DNA from: Escherichia phage aaroes
Direction: 5' to 3' (one strand)
Length of the DNA: 51,662 nucleotides
Sequence record: NC_049826.1
This document shows, one piece after another, positions 3,758 to 42,487 of the stretch. Made by a program: the position numbers and the translations under genes. The notes under the pieces are model-generated. The model ran no database searches. It worked only from the letters and a program-made list of their open reading frames with translations, and was not told the origin of the DNA. Each line of letters starts with the position of its first letter. Position 1 is the stretch's first letter.

Positions 3758-5341
3758 TTACCCTAGCAATGTTGGATTTACGAAAACAACGCCATTAATC
3801 ACACAAATATAATTTCTTTCCTCAAGCATCGGAAGCAGTTGCGTTTCCATGCGCTTCATTACTCCAGCCTGACCAACAAAAGGCTTAACTTTTCGTGCAG
3901 CCTCATATATGGCGCGCACATTCAAGATTCCCTTATTAGCCTTTCCGTGTCGAGTGATGATCTCGATTAGTTTACCCATTTCAGCATCATCACCAGCATA
4001 GCCAGAAGCGTTTGCGGCGCTAATGTATGTTTTGCTCAACTCGCTAAACATCAGCAATGCTTCCTGAACGGTTTCAACCTCAATCTCTTTCGACTTCTGA
4101 GGGTATCCACCAGGATTAAACCAATTGCGGATAGTGTGCAAAACCGAAGCAATCCTGATCACCTGCTTATCCATTTTGCCAAGCGCACCTCGCAGCATTG
4201 TATGCGAATACTTTCCGCCATCAGCAAGGTGCGGTTCCATCTCCTGACGAGCCATGTTAAGCACTCGCATTGCGGATTTGCTGATCTTAAGCTGGATGTT
4301 TGATTCGCTCATGATGTTATGGATCAGCTTAAAATATTGGCTTTTCAGTTCTCCATCAACAGGCTCATAAGTCGAATCACCGTTATCATCAACAAATTTT
4401 CGACGACCTAAAAATGATTCTTCACGCACAAGCAAATAACGCTCACTCACACCGATACCGCGCGATCCTGCATCCATGATGGCATTAATTGTTTCATCCT
4501 GGGCAATTACTGCCATGCAGCCAAGAGCTTTAAAACTCATGTTATTGTCTGCGTTTGCGCGAGCTATAGAAACATGACCGTGATCCCATGCTTTTAGCAC
4601 AAGTTCGCTGTTTGTTTTGCGTTCGCTATTGGCATATGTCAGACCTAAAAGGCTGTTAATACTCGTTGCCTCGTCTGAAATTACAGCAAAGTTACCCTGG
4701 CGATTGTTGATTCTTGCAAGTCCTTCCGGCGTGGTATCGGACACAGGGAAAACAATGTCACACATCTTTTCAAGTTTTTCTTCAAGATCTTCTTTCTCTT
4801 GGTATAGCGATTCCATATCAGCGCCAGATCGCTCGCTTTTCATCTCTTTTGCAAGACCTGCCAACTTTGCCTGAATCTTTTTTCGTTCCTTCTTTCGCTG
4901 ATCATTAATTCTTTCTACTTCAGCAACCATAGGAGCAAGTGCCAGGCTGTTAACGGCAGATTTACCAGTTGAAGGAGGCTGGCTTGTGACAACATAAAGA
5001 GCTGTCGGCTGATCCGTTCCGTGATACTCAACCGTGAAGCGTCCAAGCATTGCAGCAGACACGCATCCGATAAAATGCATATAGGCCGATGATTCAGGGA
5101 ATTGAACAGAGCGAGCAATGTTGCGCGCCAACTTACCAACAACATCAACATCATTGCCAAGAGAAATTACAGGGTAGCGATCGTTTCCGTTATTAACATC
5201 ATTAACCTCACCCCAAAAGCTGGACGATTGACGGTATCCGTTAGCCTGAATGGATACGCGCACCGGAGACAATCCTTGCGCATCAGCTAATTCGATAATT
5301 TGTTTTGGTGTTAGTTTATTGGTTTCAAACGAAAAATTCAT
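3758..5341 (-). CDS. P-loop NTPase of unknown function (527 aa)
   Basis: AAGGAG RBS before ATG 5341; Walker A-like QPPSTGKS and Walker B-like AVISDEAT; charged coiled-coil segment after the P-loop. Confidence 0.55.
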   Translation of the reverse strand: MNFSFETNKLTPKQIIELADAQGLSPVRVSIQANGYRQSSSFWGEVNDVNNGNDRYPVISLGNDVDVVGKLARNIARSVQFPESSAYMHFIGCVSAAMLGRFTVEYHGTDQPTALYVVTSQPPSTGKSAVNSLALAPMVAEVERINDQRKKERKKIQAKLAGLAKEMKSERSGADMESLYQEKEDLEEKLEKMCDIVFPVSDTTPEGLARINNRQGNFAVISDEATSINSLLGLTYANSERKTNSELVLKAWDHGHVSIARANADNNMSFKALGCMAVIAQDETINAIMDAGSRGIGVSERYLLVREESFLGRRKFVDDNGDSTYEPVDGELKSQYFKLIHNIMSESNIQLKISKSAMRVLNMARQEMEPHLADGGKYSHTMLRGALGKMDKQVIRIASVLHTIRNWFNPGGYPQKSKEIEVETVQEALLMFSELSKTYISAANASGYAGDDAEMGKLIEIITRHGKANKGILNVRAIYEAARKVKPFVGQAGVMKRMETQLLPMLEERNYICVINGVVFVNPTLLG

Positions 5342-7029: not shown

Positions 7030-7127
7030 TTAATAAACTCCTTAATAACAGTAAGAAGAATTGCAAGCCAAAGCAAACCAACAAGGCCAATCATCACGAC
7101 AAATAAAATATCAAGAAATTTCATCAT
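7026..7127 (-). CDS. hypothetical 33-aa hydrophobic peptide
   Basis: AAAGGTG RBS, tandem ATG, single TM-like helix; stop TGA overlaps the ATG of 6805-7029 (ATGA); below the ORF-track cutoff. Confidence 0.3.
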   Translation of the reverse strand: MMKFLDILFVVMIGLVGLLWLAILLTVIKEFIK

Positions 7128-7174
7128 TATTATCACCTTTATTTAAAGGGAGGAGGAAACCTCCCATTGATTAA

Positions 7175-7402
7175 TCATACAGCCTTCCAGCTTTCAATAA
7201 ACATGCTGTTTTCTTCCAGCAGTTTAATCAATTCTTCGCGCGTGTATTTGCGGATTTTACTACCTGGATGTGAGCCAACAACAAACACACCTTTGCCACT
7301 CGTGATTGTTAACTGGTTGATTCCGCAAGATTTATCCATCTTAATGGCGACGCGGTGATGCGCATCAACAGTGTGCATGATGTTAGTGACTTTAGCTTTC
7401 AT
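7175..7402 (-). CDS. hypothetical protein (75 aa)
   Basis: GAGGA RBS before internal ATG (MKAKVTN...); the track ORF extends into the promoter. Confidence 0.45.
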   Translation of the reverse strand: MKAKVTNIMHTVDAHHRVAIKMDKSCGINQLTITSGKGVFVVGSHPGSKIRKYTREELIKLLEENSMFIESWKAV

Positions 7403-12888: not shown

Positions 12889-13509
12889 ATGAAAAAATAC
12901 GAATTTGAACTTTGGGGAAGCAAATACAATTTTTCCACGAGCAAGCCGATTGTTATCGTTGATCTGGACGGCACTTTATCCGATGGAACGCATCGCTTGC
13001 ACCTGCTGCCGACAGAAGATTTGCACCTTACAGAAAGCTGGTCTGAGTTCAATAAGGCGGCTGTTGGAGATTCGCCGATTAAGAGCACGGTTGCAGTGGT
13101 TAACGGATTGTGGATGTCAGGATTTGCCATCGTTATCCTGACAGGACGCAGCGATGAGGTCATGGCTGACACCTGCGACTGGTTAAATTATAACGGCATC
13201 AAGTACGACGCGTTAATCATGCGCCGCAAGGAAGATAACCGAAAAGACACGATCATCAAAGAGGAAGTCTTACGAGCTATCGGACTGGAAAACATTGTGT
13301 GCGCTTTTGATGATTCGCATAACGTGGTTAAGCACTTCCGCAGCCTGGGAATCACAACCTATCAGGTTACGGAATACGACAAGCCACATAATCACATCCA
13401 ATCGCACGGCGTGGATGAATTGAAGCCAAAAATCGAATGCGAAGGCGAGCACTGTTTTAGTGTGGTTGATGGTAAATGTTTGCGTTGCGGCGTGGAGGGT
13501 TTGAAATGA
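12889..13509 (+). CDS. HAD-family phosphatase resembling the T4 Pnkp 3'-phosphatase domain, with C-terminal Zn-ribbon
   Basis: HAD motif I VIVDLDGTLSDG, then VILTGR, RKDTIIKEEV and FDDSHNVV blocks in the order I recall for T4 Pnkp phosphatase; C-terminal CEGEHC...CLRCG. Confidence 0.65.
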   Translation: MKKYEFELWGSKYNFSTSKPIVIVDLDGTLSDGTHRLHLLPTEDLHLTESWSEFNKAAVGDSPIKSTVAVVNGLWMSGFAIVILTGRSDEVMADTCDWLNYNGIKYDALIMRRKEDNRKDTIIKEEVLRAIGLENIVCAFDDSHNVVKHFRSLGITTYQVTEYDKPHNHIQSHGVDELKPKIECEGEHCFSVVDGKCLRCGVEGLK

Positions 13510-13667
13510 CCTGGTTACTTTTAATCTTTGTCACAAGTTACAACTCCGCCGCTATTGAATCGCATGAGTTCCACAGCGAATCAAGATGTCAGGAAGCACG
13601 AAAGCAAGTTGTTCTCCACATGTCAGATAGTGGAAAAGATGTAACGGCGTTATGTGTCCGTAAATAG
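13506..13667 (+). CDS. hypothetical small protein with N-terminal hydrophobic segment (53 aa)
   Basis: GGAGGG RBS before ATG 13506, overlapping the upstream stop; stop adjoins the repeat core. Confidence 0.35.
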   Translation: MTWLLLIFVTSYNSAAIESHEFHSESRCQEARKQVVLHMSDSGKDVTALCVRK

Positions 13668-22709: not shown

Positions 22710-23822
22710 ATGAAGGCAAAACAAAGATTTGATAGCGTCAAGGTTAAAGCGCATTTTGATGATAATGGCTTTTTAGTGGATCGCCCAATTGTGGCGCGAA
22801 TTGGCTTACAGGAGTATCACACACCGTATGGAATCAGACGAGAGTTCAGACCAGCGTCCGAGGTGTTCAAAGCTGATTCCCTTGCCACGTTCGCAGGCAA
22901 GCCGATAACTATCGGTCACGTAACGGTAACACCGGACAATGCGGATCAGGTTGTTGTTGGTTCATGCGCTGGTGCTGGTGTTCCAAATGGTGTTGGCGTT
23001 GAAGTTCCGTTAAGCATTTACTCAAAGCGAGCAATTGAGAGCGCAAAAAAGAAAGACACAGCCGAAATTTCAGTTGGTTACACATCCATTGATATTGATA
23101 AGCCAGGCTGGGGCAACAATAAAACTGGTGATTACTTATTTGAGGAAGACATTAAAGAAGACTGGAAGCCTGATTCTCCTGATTGGGTCAAATTTGACGC
23201 CATTCAGACGAATATCCGTGTCAACCACATTGCGCTTGTCTTTCGTGGTCGTGCTGGCATTGCCAAATTAAATCTTGATAGTGAACAAGATTTTCCGTAT
23301 AGTGACGAGATTCTAAATGACAAAGGAGATGAGGAAATGACAGTAAAAATTAAACTTGATGGCGCGGTAGAATTTGATGTTCCAAAGGCCGTTGCTGATC
23401 ATATTGAGGTGTTAAAGGCAGATGCAAAAGCTGCAACCGAAAAAGCTGATGGCCTTGAGGCCGAGCGCGACGCCCTGAAAACTAAAGTCGATGGCATTCC
23501 GGCGCAGATTGCAGAAGCTGTTAAGAAGGCAAAGACTGACGCAGAAGAACACGCCAAGCTAGTTGCAGATGCAACTGAAATTGGCATCAAGTGTGACGGC
23601 TTGGACGCTAAAGCGATCAAAGTTGCTTACGTCAAAGAAGTCACTGGCGCTGATATTTCAGAAAAAGCCGACGCATATATTGAAACAGCTTTTGACCTTG
23701 CGAAGCAGTCTGATAAAATGGCGGCGCAGCGTAAATATGTTAAGGGCGATTCTTTCGAATCTGGCAAGAGTGAAAAAACCGACTCCCTTGATCCGACTGC
23801 GCGTTTGAAAAAACTTAAATAA
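22710..23822 (+). CDS. scaffolding-like protein (possible protease-scaffold fusion)
   Basis: C-terminal half is a charged Ala/Lys/Glu coiled coil; sits between morphogenesis and capsid genes. Confidence 0.45.
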   Translation: MKAKQRFDSVKVKAHFDDNGFLVDRPIVARIGLQEYHTPYGIRREFRPASEVFKADSLATFAGKPITIGHVTVTPDNADQVVVGSCAGAGVPNGVGVEVPLSIYSKRAIESAKKKDTAEISVGYTSIDIDKPGWGNNKTGDYLFEEDIKEDWKPDSPDWVKFDAIQTNIRVNHIALVFRGRAGIAKLNLDSEQDFPYSDEILNDKGDEEMTVKIKLDGAVEFDVPKAVADHIEVLKADAKAATEKADGLEAERDALKTKVDGIPAQIAEAVKKAKTDAEEHAKLVADATEIGIKCDGLDAKAIKVAYVKEVTGADISEKADAYIETAFDLAKQSDKMAAQRKYVKGDSFESGKSEKTDSLDPTARLKKLK

Positions 23823-26678: not shown

Positions 26679-27046
26679 ACTATAACGAGATCGCAAGAAT
26701 GGCAACCGAAGGAATTAACTTCTTTAGTGATGGCAACGGTGAGTTTAAGTGCATAACGCAGCGTGGAAGCGTTGAAATCATCGGAGGCGAAGAAGTAGAA
26801 AAGCCAGAGATTAGTGTAATGATTAAGGGTTTAATTAGATCCCCCAAAGTCCGAGAGGTTGACGGCGAGACAATACGAGTAACCGATAAGTTGGGAGTTT
26901 TTAACAATAAAGTTGAAATTAAGAACGGGTATCATATTGATGTTGATGGTGAATTATATGTTGTAGTTGAAGCAAGACCAATCAGACAAACCAATGTCAC
27001 TGTTGCTTATCGGCCTATTTTGAGAAGGATTTCTGTACATGGCTAA
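26669..27046 (+). CDS. head closure / head-tail joining protein (putative)
   Basis: Position; overlapping start. Confidence 0.4.
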
Positions 27047-27482
27047 AAACTACACGATAAGAGAGTTTCACGGAAACATTGATGCGTGGATAAACGCCGT
27101 TGATAGTGGCCTGAAAGATTGCGTTGAGTTGTTCGCCGAAAAAGTGCATACAGATCTTGTTAAGCGTTCTCCGGTTGATACTGGTCGTTACCGTGCAAAC
27201 TGGCAGGTAACAGCAAACAAGCCGCCATTGTATGCGCTTAACCAGTACGATAAGCACGGAGACAAAACGATCGCGGAAGGAAAGCGAGCCATATACGCGA
27301 TTTTACGAGGTGGCGGCGCAGTAAGAGCCATTTATTTTTCAAACATGCTTATTTATGCTAACGCGCTTGAGTACGGTCATTCAAAACAAGCGCCAGCGGG
27401 TGTGCTTGGGATTGTAGCGGTTAAGTTGAGATCTTATATGGCTGAAGCAATAAAAGAGTCGAGGGCTAAAAATGCACTATGA
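27039..27482 (+). CDS. tail completion / neck protein (putative)
   Basis: Position; overlapping start. Confidence 0.4.
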   Translation: MAKNYTIREFHGNIDAWINAVDSGLKDCVELFAEKVHTDLVKRSPVDTGRYRANWQVTANKPPLYALNQYDKHGDKTIAEGKRAIYAILRGGGAVRAIYFSNMLIYANALEYGHSKQAPAGVLGIVAVKLRSYMAEAIKESRAKNAL

Positions 27483-27870
27483 ATTAATGCTATCGGCGCG
27501 TAAGGCGCTGGCGACTGAATACGAGAGCAGATTCATTATCGCTTATGAAAACGTAGAGTTTACGCCACCTGGTGACGGTTCGCCGTGGTTGAAGTTTGAC
27601 TATGCCGAAGTTGACACAGAATACTTGTCATTGGATCGAAAATGCGTTTCCTATATCGGAATGATTCAGGTTGGCATTGTGTTTCCACCAGGTTACGGAA
27701 CTGACAGGCCGCGCGTTCTCGCTAAAGAGATTGCGCAATTCTTTTACGATGGTAAAATGCTGGAGCATGGTTATATATATGAGGGTGCAAGAGTTCACAA
27801 GCCGCTCAAGAGTGAAAGCGGTTGGATTCTCCCAATAAGGTTTTATGTTCGAATTGAAACAAAGGAGTAA
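27472..27870 (+). CDS. tail terminator protein (putative)
   Basis: Position directly upstream of the tube gene. Confidence 0.4.
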   Translation: MHYELMLSARKALATEYESRFIIAYENVEFTPPGDGSPWLKFDYAEVDTEYLSLDRKCVSYIGMIQVGIVFPPGYGTDRPRVLAKEIAQFFYDGKMLEHGYIYEGARVHKPLKSESGWILPIRFYVRIETKE

Positions 27871-27875
27871 AAATT

Positions 27876-28538
27876 ATGCATTTACCAAATGGATCGCAAA
27901 TTTTCGTTGAGAGCAATCGCGGAAGCGAAATCCAAGCAACAGCAGTGTCAAACGCCAAAGATCCTGTTTTCACTGTTGCATCTGGCGGCACTGCGTACAA
28001 GAAAGGTGATTATGTGATCATCACTGCGTCTTCTTGGGGTAAGCTGATTGATCGTGTTATGCGTGTAAAGGCTAACGGTGAAGAAACAAGCGTGACTCTT
28101 GAAGGCGTAGATACTACTGATCAGAACGTTTTCCCGTCTGGCGGTACTGCATCTTTTGCCAAAATTGATGCATGGACGGAGATCCCTTGCGTTCAGGATT
28201 TGTCGCAGGGCGGCGGCGAACAGCAATACTATACTTATCAGTGTTTGGCAGACGACCAGGAACAGCAGTTACCTACCTATAAGAGCGCCGTTTCTCTGAC
28301 CTACACTTTTGCGCACGAATACGATAACGCGATCTATCCGCTACTTCGTACAGCAGATGAGTCAGGCGCTGTAACGGCGCTTCGCATGTGTGTACCAAAA
28401 GCAAAAGAGATGCGTTGCTGGGCTGGTGTCCTTTCGTTTAACGAGATCCCACAAACGACCGTTAACGAAATGGAAACTGTTTCCCTGTCTGTATCCCTGA
28501 AAGGTCGATTCACCTTCCTACCTTCTCAAGTAGCATAA
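27876..28538 (+). CDS. major tail (tube) protein
   Basis: 220 aa, strong RBS AAGGAG, followed by a strong terminator and then the chaperone genes. Confidence 0.55.
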   Translation: MHLPNGSQIFVESNRGSEIQATAVSNAKDPVFTVASGGTAYKKGDYVIITASSWGKLIDRVMRVKANGEETSVTLEGVDTTDQNVFPSGGTASFAKIDAWTEIPCVQDLSQGGGEQQYYTYQCLADDQEQQLPTYKSAVSLTYTFAHEYDNAIYPLLRTADESGAVTALRMCVPKAKEMRCWAGVLSFNEIPQTTVNEMETVSLSVSLKGRFTFLPSQVA

Positions 28539-28543
28539 TCACA

Positions 28544-28566
28544 AGGGGCGTTGCGCCCCTTTTTTT
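28544..28566 (+). terminator. intrinsic terminator after the tail tube gene
   Basis: AGGGGCG-ttg-CGCCCCT plus a 7-T run. Confidence 0.85.
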
Positions 28567-28605
28567 GTTACTGTACAATCATGATAAACGATTCATAATC
28601 AATTC

Positions 28606-28625
28606 TTTTAACAAAAAGTGCTATC
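28606..28625 (-). promoter_or_regulatory. inverted copy of the early repeat core upstream of the tail chaperone gene
   Basis: Plus strand TTTTAACAAAAAGTGCTATC is the exact reverse complement of the early core; flanked upstream by TACAAT and CATAAT. Confidence 0.4.
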
Positions 28626-28637
28626 AAGGAGAAAGAA

Positions 28638-28955
28638 ATGTCAAAAATGAAATTGACGATTGGGCCGCTTCCTGACTTTAAATTACCAGTGAAATTTGCA
28701 ATGCCTAACGGAGAAGATCAAACAATTATCTTCACAGTTCGCCACCGCAAAACAAGTGAGATTCACGAGCGCTACACGTCAGATACTCCAATGAGCGATG
28801 TTGAAATGATCACCTTCCTTGCTTCCGGTTGGAATCTTGATGATGAATTTAACGAAGAAAATATTAAACAGCTTCTTGATTACTACCCAGCAACAGCAAT
28901 CGGATTAACTAGCGCATACATGAAAGCGCTTGCGGGGCAGCGAGTAAAAAACTAA
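28638..28955 (+). CDS. tail assembly chaperone (lambda gpG analogue)
   Basis: 105 aa ORF upstream of the tape measure gene ending in slippery A-AAA-AAC. Confidence 0.6.
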   Translation: MSKMKLTIGPLPDFKLPVKFAMPNGEDQTIIFTVRHRKTSEIHERYTSDTPMSDVEMITFLASGWNLDDEFNEENIKQLLDYYPATAIGLTSAYMKALAGQRVKN

Positions 28956-29266
28956 AAAGGGCGGTTTACCTGTTTTATCAGAAACCGCCGACAGATGCAG
29001 AGCTTGAGGCAGTTGGCCTTACAAGGGCAGACTATGAAGGAGAAGATCCGCCAGAGGTTATATTTGATGAAAGCATGATGCAATCATGGGATATATTTTG
29101 CGCAATGCAAACGCAATGGCGATGTTCTGGCGGTGGCGCTTACGGATTTGATTATAATGTCTTGCCTATGCTTTTTGAGATTTACAAGGTTGAGGATCGC
29201 GAGATGGCGCTAAACGACTTGCGAATCATGGAGCAAAAAGCACTTGAAATGATGCATTCAAAATAA
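28638..29266 (+). CDS. tail assembly chaperone frameshift product (gpGT analogue, -1 shift near 28952)
   Basis: The -1 frame is open from 28946 to the stop at 29264-29266. Confidence 0.55.
28946..28990 (+). other. programmed -1 ribosomal frameshift signal (slippery heptamer plus downstream hairpin)
   Basis: A-AAA-AAC at 28946-28952; stem GGCGGTTT (28960-28967) / AAACCGCC (28983-28990) 7 nt downstream. Confidence 0.6.
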
Positions 29267-29305
29267 GCGCCTACGGGCGCTTTTTTATTACCTGGAGGAT
29301 TAATA

Positions 29306-31978
29306 ATGTCAGAACAATACGCAGGCTTGACGCTTGGGGTTGACGTTTCTCAACTCAACAATGCTGTAAAGTCTTTGCAGCAATTCAAGAAGGCAAACGA
29401 CGACGCAAAGGGAAGCGTTGAGAGTTTTGTTGATTCAGAGGTTGTTGCGAGACAAAGAGCCAAACAACTGGCTGAGGAATTGGCAAAGCAGAAGCAAGAA
29501 TTTAAAGCAATTCAGTCGGCAATAGATCCGACAGCAAGCAAAATGGATAAGTTGCGCCAGGCTGCGACACAGCTTGATGCGCTTTGGAAAAAAGGAATTG
29601 TGCCGGATGATACATTCTTTGAGTTAGGATCAATTCTTGAGACGCAGCAAAACAAACTGATCGCAACTAAAAAGGCGCTAACTGAAGAAGGCCGCGCGGC
29701 GCTTGAGGAAGCAAAAAACAAGGCAAGGGCAGAGGCTGAGGCAAGAAAGTTTATTGCGGCATTGCAGGCGCAAGCTGACGCAGCGGAAAAAACAAAATCA
29801 GAGCTTGTCGAAATGAGAGCCGCACAACTTGGAGTTAGTGCAGAGGCTGCACCATTTATTGCAAAAATGAAGGAGCAGGAAAAACAAGCCTCAAAACTTG
29901 GCGTTTCTATGGGGCAGTACAAGCAAGCAATGGCGCAATTGCCAATGCAGATCACTGACGTTGTTACTTCTCTTGCTTCAGGTATGCCAGTGTGGATGAT
30001 CGCAATCCAGCAGGGCGGGCAAATCAAGGACTCATTCGGCGGTGTTGCTAATACGTTTAAAGCGCTAATGACATTTGTCACGCCTTTAAGTGTAGGAATG
30101 ACGGCGCTGACTGGTGCTCTTGGTTATGCTGCATATAATGCATACAAAGCAAATGCACAACTGAAGGAGATCACAAAAACCGTTCAGGAGGCAACTGGTC
30201 TTTCTGGTGATTTTGCGGAGCGGATTGCAACTGGAATCCAGGCGCTATCTGACAAGACAGGAGAGAGCGCCGACAATATAGCAAAGGCTTACATAAGCAC
30301 TAAGGATGGAGCAAGCGAGGCTATACAAAAACTCGTCGATGTTGGATTTACCTATGACGAAGCAAAGGTAAAAGTAAACGAATACAAAAACGCATCAAGT
30401 TTTGTAAGTCTTAACAATGAAATTGCCGATCATAAAAACAAAGTTCTTGAGCTTGGCGATTCATGGTATGCGGTCTTAAAAGCAAAACGTAATTATGCTT
30501 CACCGTCCGGCGGGCTGTTGGGGAAAGAGCTTGGTTATGTGAATCCAATGCTGCAATTTGCGAAGAACACCTATGAGGATATAGGAAAGATCGTAAAAGA
30601 TGCGAATAAGGATATGGCGGAACGAGCAGCACGAATCGACAGAGAAAACCTTTCCTTAAACAGAGTTCGAGCGGCGCAAGAGGCTTTAAACAAAGCTATA
30701 GAGGATCAGAAGAACGTAGCAAGGACAGCAGACGAAGAGTTGAAAAAACGAGCGGCTGAGAACGTGGAGTTCAGGCGAAAAGAGCTTGAAGAGGCGAAGA
30801 AGGCGCAGCAGCAAAAGGAAAAAGTTGGTGGAGTTGTAAAAGCACCAACAGAGCAGCTTGATAAGGAGCTATATGTTCTCAAAGCGCAACTTGAAACACT
30901 AAAAGAGCACAGGACTGTAAATGATGTTATTTCACGCCAGCGACAATCTTTGTGGAGCATTGAAAAGCAGATCCAGATCCTGGAGGAAGCGCAAAGCAAA
31001 CGTAAGCTGACAAAAGCGGAACAGGCGTTACTAAACGAGCAAAAAGCAGTTATTGCTATGGCAAAAGAAAAGGCCGAGATAGGCGATCAGATTGTTTTGC
31101 AACAGAGAAAGAATAAGCAATACCAGGAAGGTCTTAAATTCATTCAGCAAACATCAGATGCTATTGACGCTATGAACTTGCGACAGTCTGGAGCTACAGA
31201 TCTGCAAATCCAGCGAGAGCTTGAGTTGAAGAAGTTGCGAACTGATTATGTTGCTGGCGGAGGTAGTATCGACGATGAAATTTACCAGCAGATGGAAGCA
31301 AAACTGAAGGAGTATTACGCCACTGAGGATCAGCTTAGAAATAACTGGATTGCAGGAGCAAAGAACGCATGGGAGGTTTACGGACAAGATGCAATGGATA
31401 TGTACGGCAACGTGCAAGATATTGCAAGCGAGGCGCTCAACGGTCTAACCAACCAAATGGCTACATTCCTTGCAACAGGTAAGGCAAATTTTAAGAGCTT
31501 CGCAACGTCAATCATCCAAATGATTATCCAGATGATCACAAAGATGGTTATCTTTAATGCCATATCTGGTGCGATTGGCGGTGACACTTGGACGATTGGA
31601 AGCCTTCTTAAAAATGTTGGATTTGCAACTGGTGGATACACTGGCGACGGCGGTAAGTATGAGCCAGCAGGTGTTGTCCATAAAGGCGAGTTTGTCATGA
31701 CGAAGGAGGCCACGAAGCGGATCGGGGTTGGAAATCTTTACAAAATGATGCGCGGTTATGCAAATGGCGGCGTTGTTGGCGGAACTTCATACACTGGCGG
31801 CGGAGTTTCATCTGGAGCAACAAATCTTAATATTGGCGGGATCAGCGTTGATATTAACAACGGAAGCGATCCGAAAGGGTTGGAGACTGGCGTAAAAATG
31901 ATTTTCACTGATATGATTAAGCGTTCCTGTACGCAGGGTGGGGAAGTTTACGAATTTGTTATGTCTAAGCGGGGGTGA
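29306..31978 (+). CDS. tail tape measure protein
   Basis: 890 aa, long Ala/Gln/Lys/Glu-rich coiled coil, Gly-rich C-terminus; position. Confidence 0.85.
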
Positions 31979-32331
31979 TAGTGAAACTTGAGCAATTCAA
32001 ATGGTGCACACAAACGCAAGGAGGCGGCGGCACTATGACCACATCAAATAACGACAGGGAAATCTCATTTGGTAATGGTTACACGCAGGTTGCGTCAGGA
32101 GGGTTTAACACGGTACGCAGGGAGTTTTCCATTGTCTATGTTGGCAAGGATTACAGAGACGTTGTTGACTTCCTGAATGGGCACAGGCTGAAGCCGTTTT
32201 TATGGTTCATGCCTGACGGTCAGCCTGGTCTATTCAGGGTTAAATCCGGTAGCGTTGGATTAACTCCAATATCAGCAACCGTTCAGGAAGTGAAAGCAAC
32301 ATTTACTGAGCAATTTACATCAATGCAATAA
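31975..32331 (+). CDS. minor tail protein (lambda gpM-like)
   Basis: Position after the tape measure gene; start uncertain (GTG 31975 or ATG 32035 after AGGAGG). Confidence 0.55.
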
Positions 32332-42040: not shown

Positions 42041-42487
42041 ATGCATATTATTACTGGTGAGATCCGAAAAGAGCCGCGAGTAAAGCAAATGCCTAACGGC
42101 AGCACACTTTATGTGGTTGAACTTTCAGAGCGATATAAAGATAAAGATGGAAACTGGCAATATACAAACTACAGTTTCTTTTTTAATGCCAAAACAGAAG
42201 GTCTTAATGGTTGGTATTCTGAGGCGTTCCAGGTTGGCAAGGTTATTTCTGTATCTTGCGACACGCTGCGCATTGAAACGCGCGAATATAACGGCAAGAC
42301 ATATTCAAGTTTGATGACTGGCGGATTTGCAAATCTTATATTCAGCCAGCGCGGAGAAGGTCAGCCGCAACAGCAACAACAAGGCGGATGGGGACAACCA
42401 CAGCAACATAATCAACCACAGCAACAGCAACAACCAAGACAAAGCAATCAGCCTCCTATGGACTTTGACGACGACATCCCTTTCTGA
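42041..42487 (+). CDS. ssb: single-stranded DNA-binding protein
   Basis: OB-fold-sized N-terminal domain, Gln/Gly-rich linker, C-terminal acidic tip DFDDDIPF identical to the E. coli SSB tip. Confidence 0.85.
   Translation: MHIITGEIRKEPRVKQMPNGSTLYVVELSERYKDKDGNWQYTNYSFFFNAKTEGLNGWYSEAFQVGKVISVSCDTLRIETREYNGKTYSSLMTGGFANLIFSQRGEGQPQQQQQGGWGQPQQHNQPQQQQQPRQSNQPPMDFDDDIPF

Follow-up and report, generated by a model that had tools for sequence, protein, structure and literature searches.

Programmed -1 frameshifting in long-tailed phages allows a single gene to yield both a short and a long tail-assembly chaperone. In the genome of Escherichia phage aaroes (NC_049826.1; the whole stretch of 51,662 nucleotides that was analysed is referred to here as the window), the chaperone gene, G, stops directly after a potentially slippery heptamer, and a second frame, T, remains open beyond the stop codon. 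This arrangement raises the question of how T comes to be expressed: as the C-terminal part of a fusion made by frameshifting at the end of G, as a small gene in its own right, or by way of altered transcripts. A preliminary description of this DNA had proposed the first of these, in the G/GT form. Gene order, Pfam families, selection in the -1 frame, a conserved heptamer and an annotated relative together support that proposal, and we regard it as very probable that this T1-like siphophage uses programmed -1 ribosomal frameshifting of the G/GT type at the site. The frameshift had been correctly read, and is an ordinary example of a kind already known in T1-like relatives.

The G and T frames meet at a slippery heptamer

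The junction between the two frames runs ...GGG CAG CGA GTA AAA AAC TAA AAA GGG CGG TTT ACC..., and the register of G, which begins with ATG and can be followed directly in the sequence, places the 0-frame codons GTA at 28944, AAA at 28947, AAC at 28950 and TAA at 28953-28955. A_AAA_AAC (28946-28952) is an X_XXY_YYZ heptamer in the right register for tandem -1 slippage. The last upstream stop codon in the -1 frame is TAG at 28910-28912, and the frame then stays open from 28913 until TAA at 29264-29266. Reading after a slip would resume with CTA at 28952 and continue for 103 more codons to that stop, so that the predicted GT fusion is join(28638..28952, 28952..29266), a protein of 209 aa. The preliminary description had located the chaperone end at A_AAA_AAC followed by TAA (28946-28955), an open -1 frame through to 29266 and a hairpin starting 7 nt past the heptamer, all of which our reading reproduces (Table 1). 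It had likewise remarked that the list of open reading frames represents the T frame only by a 63-aa fragment (29075-29266), and this is indeed the case because no ATG, GTG or TTG occurs between 28913 and 29075.

Table 1. Features of the G/T locus and its neighbours, in coordinates of the window.
Feature	Position	Strand	Basis or remark
HK97-gp10-like tail component	27039-27482		PF04883
Tail terminator	27472-27870		PF13554
Major tail (tube) protein gene, 5' neighbour of G	27876-28538	+	Phage_tail_3 (PF08813), E = 8e-63
Terminator-like hairpin and T run, between tube gene and G	28543-28568	+	
Shine-Dalgarno AAGGAG	28626-28631	+	6 nt before the G start codon; read from sequence
Gene G, tail assembly (tape measure) chaperone, 105 aa, product of standard translation	28638-28955	+	ORF; PF08748; phrog_569, phrog_17368
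Overlap in which 0 and -1 frames are both open, 43 nt with the G stop	28913-28955	+	
Slippery heptamer A_AAA_AAC	28946-28952	+	Sole canonical heptamer in the overlap; same heptamer and place in 37 of 44 comparable loci
T extension, -1 frame, 104 codons and stop	28952-29266	+	PF08809; phrog_17368 positions 109-211; purifying selection indicated 5' of the first ATG (29075)
0-frame stop TAA adjoining the heptamer	28953-28955	+	Adjoining in 41 of 44 loci (stop TAA, TGA or TAG)
Putative frameshift stimulator hairpin	28960-28989	+	8 bp and 3 bp; 7-nt spacer (28953-28959)
Terminator-like hairpin and T run, beginning within the T stop codon	29265-29288	+	
Tape measure protein gene, 3' neighbour	29306-31978	+	TMP_2 (PF06791), E = 1.9e-35; Tape_meas_lam_C (PF09718), E = 6.5e-22
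Minor tail protein	31975-32331		PF05939

Genomic context and protein families

The window belongs to a T1-like siphophage of the genus Hanrivervirus (family Drexlerviridae) and is 98% identical to known phages. Across 27800-29400 its identity to the 30 best-matching phage records lies between 96.5 and 98.2%, and those of the best-matching records that were inspected (Fulano1, JLBYU09, Henu8, damhaus and pSf-1) are Hanrivervirus, Drexlerviridae, as well. The G/T pair sits between the tube and tape measure genes, which is the canonical G/GT position.

Profile searches assign each half of the predicted fusion to a family of its own. G matches Phage_TAC_4 (PF08748) over the complete profile (positions 1-124 of 124; E = 1.8e-30, 106.2 bits against a gathering cut-off of 21.1), and T matches DUF1799 (PF08809) over profile positions 2-80 of 80 (E = 3.5e-12, 46.8 bits against a cut-off of 26), corresponding to fusion residues 127-206. 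No further Pfam family, including those of lambda's gpG and gpT, is matched at E <= 0.01. A single PHROG, phrog_17368, covers both halves: of its 213 positions, 1-107 align with G and 109-211 with T, and fused proteins of this family are therefore on record. Searching for homologues of the 209-aa fusion brought up three ORFs only, all limited to T and 123-136 aa long. By sequence, no meaningful match emerged from the PDB, the best being an unrelated kinase domain at E = 0.4, and an Rfam scan of 28500-29400 stayed well below the gathering cut-offs: its top scores were 20-24 bits where 50-60 would be required, and came from sRNA families with no relation to the locus.

Two strong terminator-like hairpins flank the G/GT gene, and terminators are annotated at the equivalent places in G29-2, Sazh and PTXU06. 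These elements may step transcription down across the tube, chaperone and tape measure genes.

Conservation of the junction among relatives

A tblastn search with the 209-aa fusion matched 1,142 phage records, 1,075 of which cover at least 80% of the fusion. The match comes in two pieces in 58 of 60 rows sampled across the ranking, and identities range between 99% and 28%, the lowest being those of Vibrio and Ralstonia phages. Records of Klebsiella phages that carry the G/T gene pair number 434.

Comparison of 47 loci (46 that were fetched, together with the window) places T in the -1 frame of G in 44, the sampled loci being related, such that these and the following counts do not represent independent events. 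A canonical heptamer ends exactly at the G stop codon in 41 of the 44, down to 22% identity in G. Three types of heptamer occur at this position: A_AAA_AAC in 37 loci, A_AAG_GGT in one (MatMar) and G_GGA_AAC in three (Vibrio phage Marilyn and two Ralstonia phages). The only other candidate slip site within the aaroes overlap, G_GGG at 28934-37, was rejected, as relatives do not conserve it. An upstream Shine-Dalgarno-like stimulator was also considered and rejected; the GGGG at 28934-37 is replaced in relatives (gctggtcag, gcaggtcaa).

The remaining three of the 44 loci have no canonical heptamer at the junction. Two of them, from Klebsiella Webervirus (L007 and L040), read A_AAA_GTT_TAA, and the third, Rogunavirus C119 (L038), reads A_AAG_GTC_TAA; in codons these are GCA AAA GTT TAA and GCA AAG GTC TAA, which leave no more than a Lys tetramer, separated from the stop by a single codon. 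Motifs with a single tetramer form the class Z_ZZN (Sharma et al., PMC4066793), and in the Webervirus and C119 loci the shift may come about through one slipping tRNA-Lys alone. With three relatives lacking a canonical heptamer, members of the family do not all slip in exactly the same way.

T is out of the -1 frame in three loci, namely an IMG/VR contig (L012) and Salmonella phage 36, which is represented twice (L032 and L039). In the contig (IMGVR_UViG_2974632794_000001, about 1800-2200) the slippery run is one A shorter (A5 for A6), a run of five T is reduced to T4, and T carries a deletion close to its end. The record of Salmonella phage 36 (NC_029071) is fragmented, its chaperone region being split into several small ORFs. 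Both anomalies look like homopolymer sequencing errors, not biology.

The downstream hairpin and the adjoining stop codon

The hairpin downstream of the junction is formed by outer arms GGCGGTTT (28960-28967) and AAACCGCC (28982-28989), with three inner pairs between 28970-72 and 28979-81, and has an MFE of -15.1 kcal/mol. Measured against dinucleotide shuffles its stability is not significant (z = -1.5; 16 of 200 shuffles are as stable), and among codon-usage-weighted synonymous recodings of the T frame 3.5% are as stable. Of the relatives with a canonical heptamer, most likewise have a stem that starts 6-7 nt downstream in the MFE fold of the 55 nt past it, with z = -2.5 to -4.5 under uniform synonymous recoding. 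Stems also occur in distant phages in which the arms code for other amino acids, such as Dhillonvirus PTXU06 (GGCGGCG / CGCCGCC) and Vibrio phage Marilyn (GGTCGGG / CCCGACC). In an ungapped alignment of 27 sequences, 76% of the cells at paired positions can pair, versus 31-50% in slid controls. Covariation is weak, the score of 0.155 being matched by one slid control (0.160). Synonymous changes have removed the stem in the L013 group (AGG GCG GTT to CGC GCC GTC in L013) and in L037, both of which keep the heptamer; it is also missing from AN_ECEAS, where the heptamer is kept, and from C119. The hairpin is likely a non-essential stimulator, a role with moderate support, and the adjoining stop codon, which is more strictly conserved, may matter more.

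This difference in conservation bears on how the slip itself occurs. One variant of the G/GT frameshift, the 'shifty stop', would have the ribosome slip after translocation, with the stop codon in an empty A site and either the E- and P-site tRNAs or the P-site tRNA-Asn alone re-pairing; the identity of the site would be the same, and the stop, not the hairpin, would be the main stimulator. Such a scheme fits the contact between heptamer and stop, which holds in 41 of the 44 loci whichever of the three heptamers or stop codons they carry, as well as the dispensability of the hairpin in some lineages and the retention of a stop within one codon in the relatives that have only a tetramer. The same adjacency may instead reflect a minimal overlap, or selection for a G that is wholly contained in GT, and the lambda G/GT site works with its stop codon further downstream of the slip site. 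On balance we consider the post-translocation route rather unlikely. Extended to the whole Phage_TAC_4 and DUF1799 family, the idea would make contact between slip site and stop the real stimulator and the hairpin an optional tuner, with heptamer-less lineages shifting on a single tRNA-Lys. We hold this broader scheme to be doubtful; if it is true, the family would constitute a natural series on how stop-codon context sets a low frameshift ratio.

Translation of the T frame from the junction

Whichever the timing of the slip, a G/GT frameshift predicts that T is translated from the junction onward, including the stretch of 41 codons that precedes its first start codon. We compared this stretch in the window with 23 other ungapped unique sequences. 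Relatives with 88-98% amino acid identity there differ from the window by 14-22 nucleotides in codons with a synonymous change and by 1-8 in codons with a non-synonymous one (for example, 18 versus 1 in L013 and 20 versus 1 in MatMar), and variable columns fall on -1-frame codon positions 1, 2 and 3 in the numbers 23, 17 and 38. This pattern of substitution indicates that the 41 T codons 5' of the first start are under purifying selection in the -1 frame. A coding stretch that has no initiation codon and lies in phase with the slippery site is what the frameshift model predicts, and is hard to fit to an independent T gene.

An independent gene is nonetheless how most GenBank records treat T: many annotate an ORF of its own in this frame, of 55-85 aa, and in G29-2, where an ATG falls two codons past the junction, a 102-aa ORF is annotated. 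For aaroes, such a gene would have to begin at ATG 29075 (63 aa) or at a non-canonical start, given the lack of ATG, GTG and TTG in the open frame upstream, and no Shine-Dalgarno sequence lies ahead of 29075 (ttgatgaaagcATG). The annotated starts vary between records, and the first in-frame start is absent from the 41-codon stretch in many lineages or else falls at codon 2, 17, 22 or 35, with none of these positions conserved. The codons ahead of the ATG are, moreover, conserved as protein, changing mostly synonymously, and belong to the phrog_17368, phrog_680 and DUF1799 profiles, whose matches to T begin at residues 1 and 9 (PHROGs) and 22 (DUF1799). We therefore judge a separate T gene expressed with no frameshift to be very improbable.

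Marginally less credible still is slippage of RNA polymerase on the six consecutive A of the heptamer (28946-28951), which would put an extra A into some transcripts and dispense with ribosomal slippage: contig L012 does differ in length in exactly this run, but it also carries the T5-to-T4 change and the deletion that look like sequencing error, productive transcriptional slippage generally wants runs of about 8-9 or more, longer than A6, and the relatives with G_GGA_AAC or A_AAG_GGT, which have no long homopolymer, still obey the rule for tandem tRNA slippage, so that the X_XXY_YYZ property, and not the A run, is what has been conserved. Because the heptamer sequence varies while this property and its position stay, the comparison argues for selection on slipperiness and against polymerase slippage on the A run. 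Transcriptional slippage as a subject is reviewed in PMC5009743.

Other heptamers in the window

The heptamer taken alone is unremarkable, AAAAAAC occurring 17 times in the window versus 21.6 expected. Canonical in-frame heptamers occupy 43 of the 15,408 codon positions of the window's ORFs (0.28%); for any one gene this puts the chance of a heptamer at its last position at about 0.3%, and the chance of one anywhere in the 14-codon overlap at about 4%. Among 14 in-frame heptamers that we checked, comprising the most shift-prone types and those close to gene ends, the G/T site has the longest -1 extension, at 104 codons; the next are 78, 54 and 42, and in 10 of the 14 the -1 frame closes within 19 codons or fewer. 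The significance of the site comes from its position, context and conservation, and from neither heptamer nor hairpin alone.

The sites with the next-longest extensions have simpler explanations. A_AAT_TTC at 7116-7122 and G_GGT_TTG at 13497-13503 lie 7 and 1 codons from gene ends and are followed by 78 and 54 open -1 codons, respectively; the ORFs past them (7167-7358 and 13476-13667) have their own start codons and so look like ordinary small neighbouring or overlapping genes. At 42478-42487, an in-frame C_CCT_TTC adjoins the stop codon of an SSB-like gene (product ...DFDDDIPF), followed by a terminator-like hairpin. The 42 open -1 codons past this heptamer show no evidence of a conserved product, and the simplest account of its presence is the conserved IPF tail (ATC CCT TTC), with no recoding involved. 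In-frame G_GGA_AAG or A_AAA_AAG heptamers, the types that shift most readily in E. coli, also occur amid long ORFs at 619-625, 4877-4883 (- strand), 23045-23051 and 49359-49365. The -1 frame reaches a stop after 1-19 codons at these four, and they are probably incidental because slippage would give truncated products only.

Proposed mechanism

In the G/GT frameshift as we envisage it for aaroes, most ribosomes would start at 28638 and terminate at the TAA at 28953, producing the 105-aa chaperone G. A minority would slip one base back on A_AAA_AAC, where both tRNAs, tRNA-Lys from AAA and tRNA-Asn from AAC, could re-pair with AAA, and would then read from CTA at 28952 through 104 codons to 29266, giving a 209-aa GT that consists of the whole of G and the DUF1799 T domain. 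How often slipping occurs is probably governed by the adjoining stop codon and by the hairpin that follows after 7 nt, through pausing of the ribosome. AAN codons are shift-prone, those of mixed purine and pyrimidine such as AAC being weaker than AAG in E. coli, and in an IS family A_AAA_AAC has been proven to act as a frameshift site in E. coli (PMC4066793). The ratio of G to GT in lambda is 30:1 (PMC5009743), and a weaker shifter such as AAC would fit a low GT:G ratio of this order (1:30). By analogy with lambda, many copies of G and few of GT would coat the tape measure protein, with the T domain recruiting the tube protein; neither G nor GT would be present in the finished virion, as is established for lambda.

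Annotation and significance

The aaroes site adds one more case to a mechanism that is very widespread and that fixes the proportion of G to GT for tail assembly. The fusion is predicted from sequence, conservation and annotated relatives, and we found no protein-level evidence for GT in Escherichia phage aaroes or its genus. The sole addition of the analysis is a correction of annotation for Hanrivervirus-type records, to join(28638..28952, 28952..29266). Most of the closest Hanrivervirus records either list G and a separate, truncated T of 63 aa, whose name is 'hypothetical' or the erroneous 'tail length tape measure protein', or else list no T.

Naming in this region is uneven more generally. 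G and the T fragment of relatives appear variously as 'tail length tape measure protein', 'TfmS' and 'hypothetical protein'; in VAC10 the tube protein is labelled 'tail protein depolymerase', and in JLBYU09 a 123-aa head-tail gene is labelled 'ribonucleoside-triphosphate reductase'. The N-terminal core common to both isoforms of chaperones of this kind was recently reported to be a target of a bacterial Avs immune sensor (bioRxiv 10.64898/2026.01.04.697583), and correct annotation of the isoforms is therefore of some use to work on phage defence.

Comparison with known systems

By architecture and function, and not by sequence family, the aaroes site is of the G/GT kind, and would be a functional analogue or a distant relative of lambda's. 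Studies of lambda G/GT include those of Levin, Hendrix and Casjens in 1993 and of Xu, Hendrix and Duda in 2004, 2013 and 2014, and the G/GT type was reportedly defined in the 2004 work. The aaroes locus presents the characteristic gene position, a -1 overlap in which T has no initiation signals of its own, a slip site in register, conservation of the arrangement and a T frame that appears to be translated. In lambda the fusion is of low abundance, with an extra domain believed to bind to tube protein (PMC5009743). The lambda heptamer is G_GGA_AAG, whereas that of aaroes is A_AAA_AAC and directly adjoins the stop codon; the proteins also fall into different Pfam families, those of aaroes being Phage_TAC_4 and DUF1799, and a corresponding function in aaroes is suggested by analogy.

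The same heptamer is found in an insertion sequence that we take to be IS1, at its insAB' junction. That site, in cluster A_AAA_AAC_1, supports low-level -1 shifting by E. coli ribosomes (Sharma et al. 2014, PMC4066793). It has no established stimulator and joins transposase ORFs, whereas the aaroes site has an adjoining stop and a candidate hairpin. The dnaX cassette, which consists of A_AAA_AAG, an upstream Shine-Dalgarno-like element and a downstream hairpin, shares with aaroes an A-rich heptamer, a similar hairpin spacing and the translation system of the host. It differs in ending on AAG, where aaroes has the weaker shifter AAC, and in yielding a frameshift product shorter than the 0-frame product, where that of aaroes would be longer. 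No Shine-Dalgarno-like element of the dnaX type is conserved 6-17 nt upstream of the aaroes heptamer, the only candidate being GGGG at 28934-37.

Among tailed viruses of more distant hosts, the haloarchaeal siphovirus HCTV-2 has A_AAA_AAC at its g-t frameshift and HCTV-1 has G_GGA_AAC (PMC5009743); the latter is also the heptamer of the Vibrio and Ralstonia phages compared here. HCTV-2 differs from aaroes in having an archaeal host and unrelated sequences. The closest parallels are Citrobacter phages Sazh and Stevie and E. coli phage U136B, which share with aaroes both the family Drexlerviridae and the Pfam families of the two halves. The junction of Sazh (MH729819, Tlsvirus) is identical, GTA AAA AAC TAA AAA GGG CGG TTT ACC, with the same hairpin arms, although amino acid identity to aaroes is only 58% in G and 88% in T. 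A two-piece joined CDS is annotated in Sazh as 'Tape measure chaperone frameshift product', and the genome papers of Stevie and of U136B (PMC8104045) report the same frameshift.
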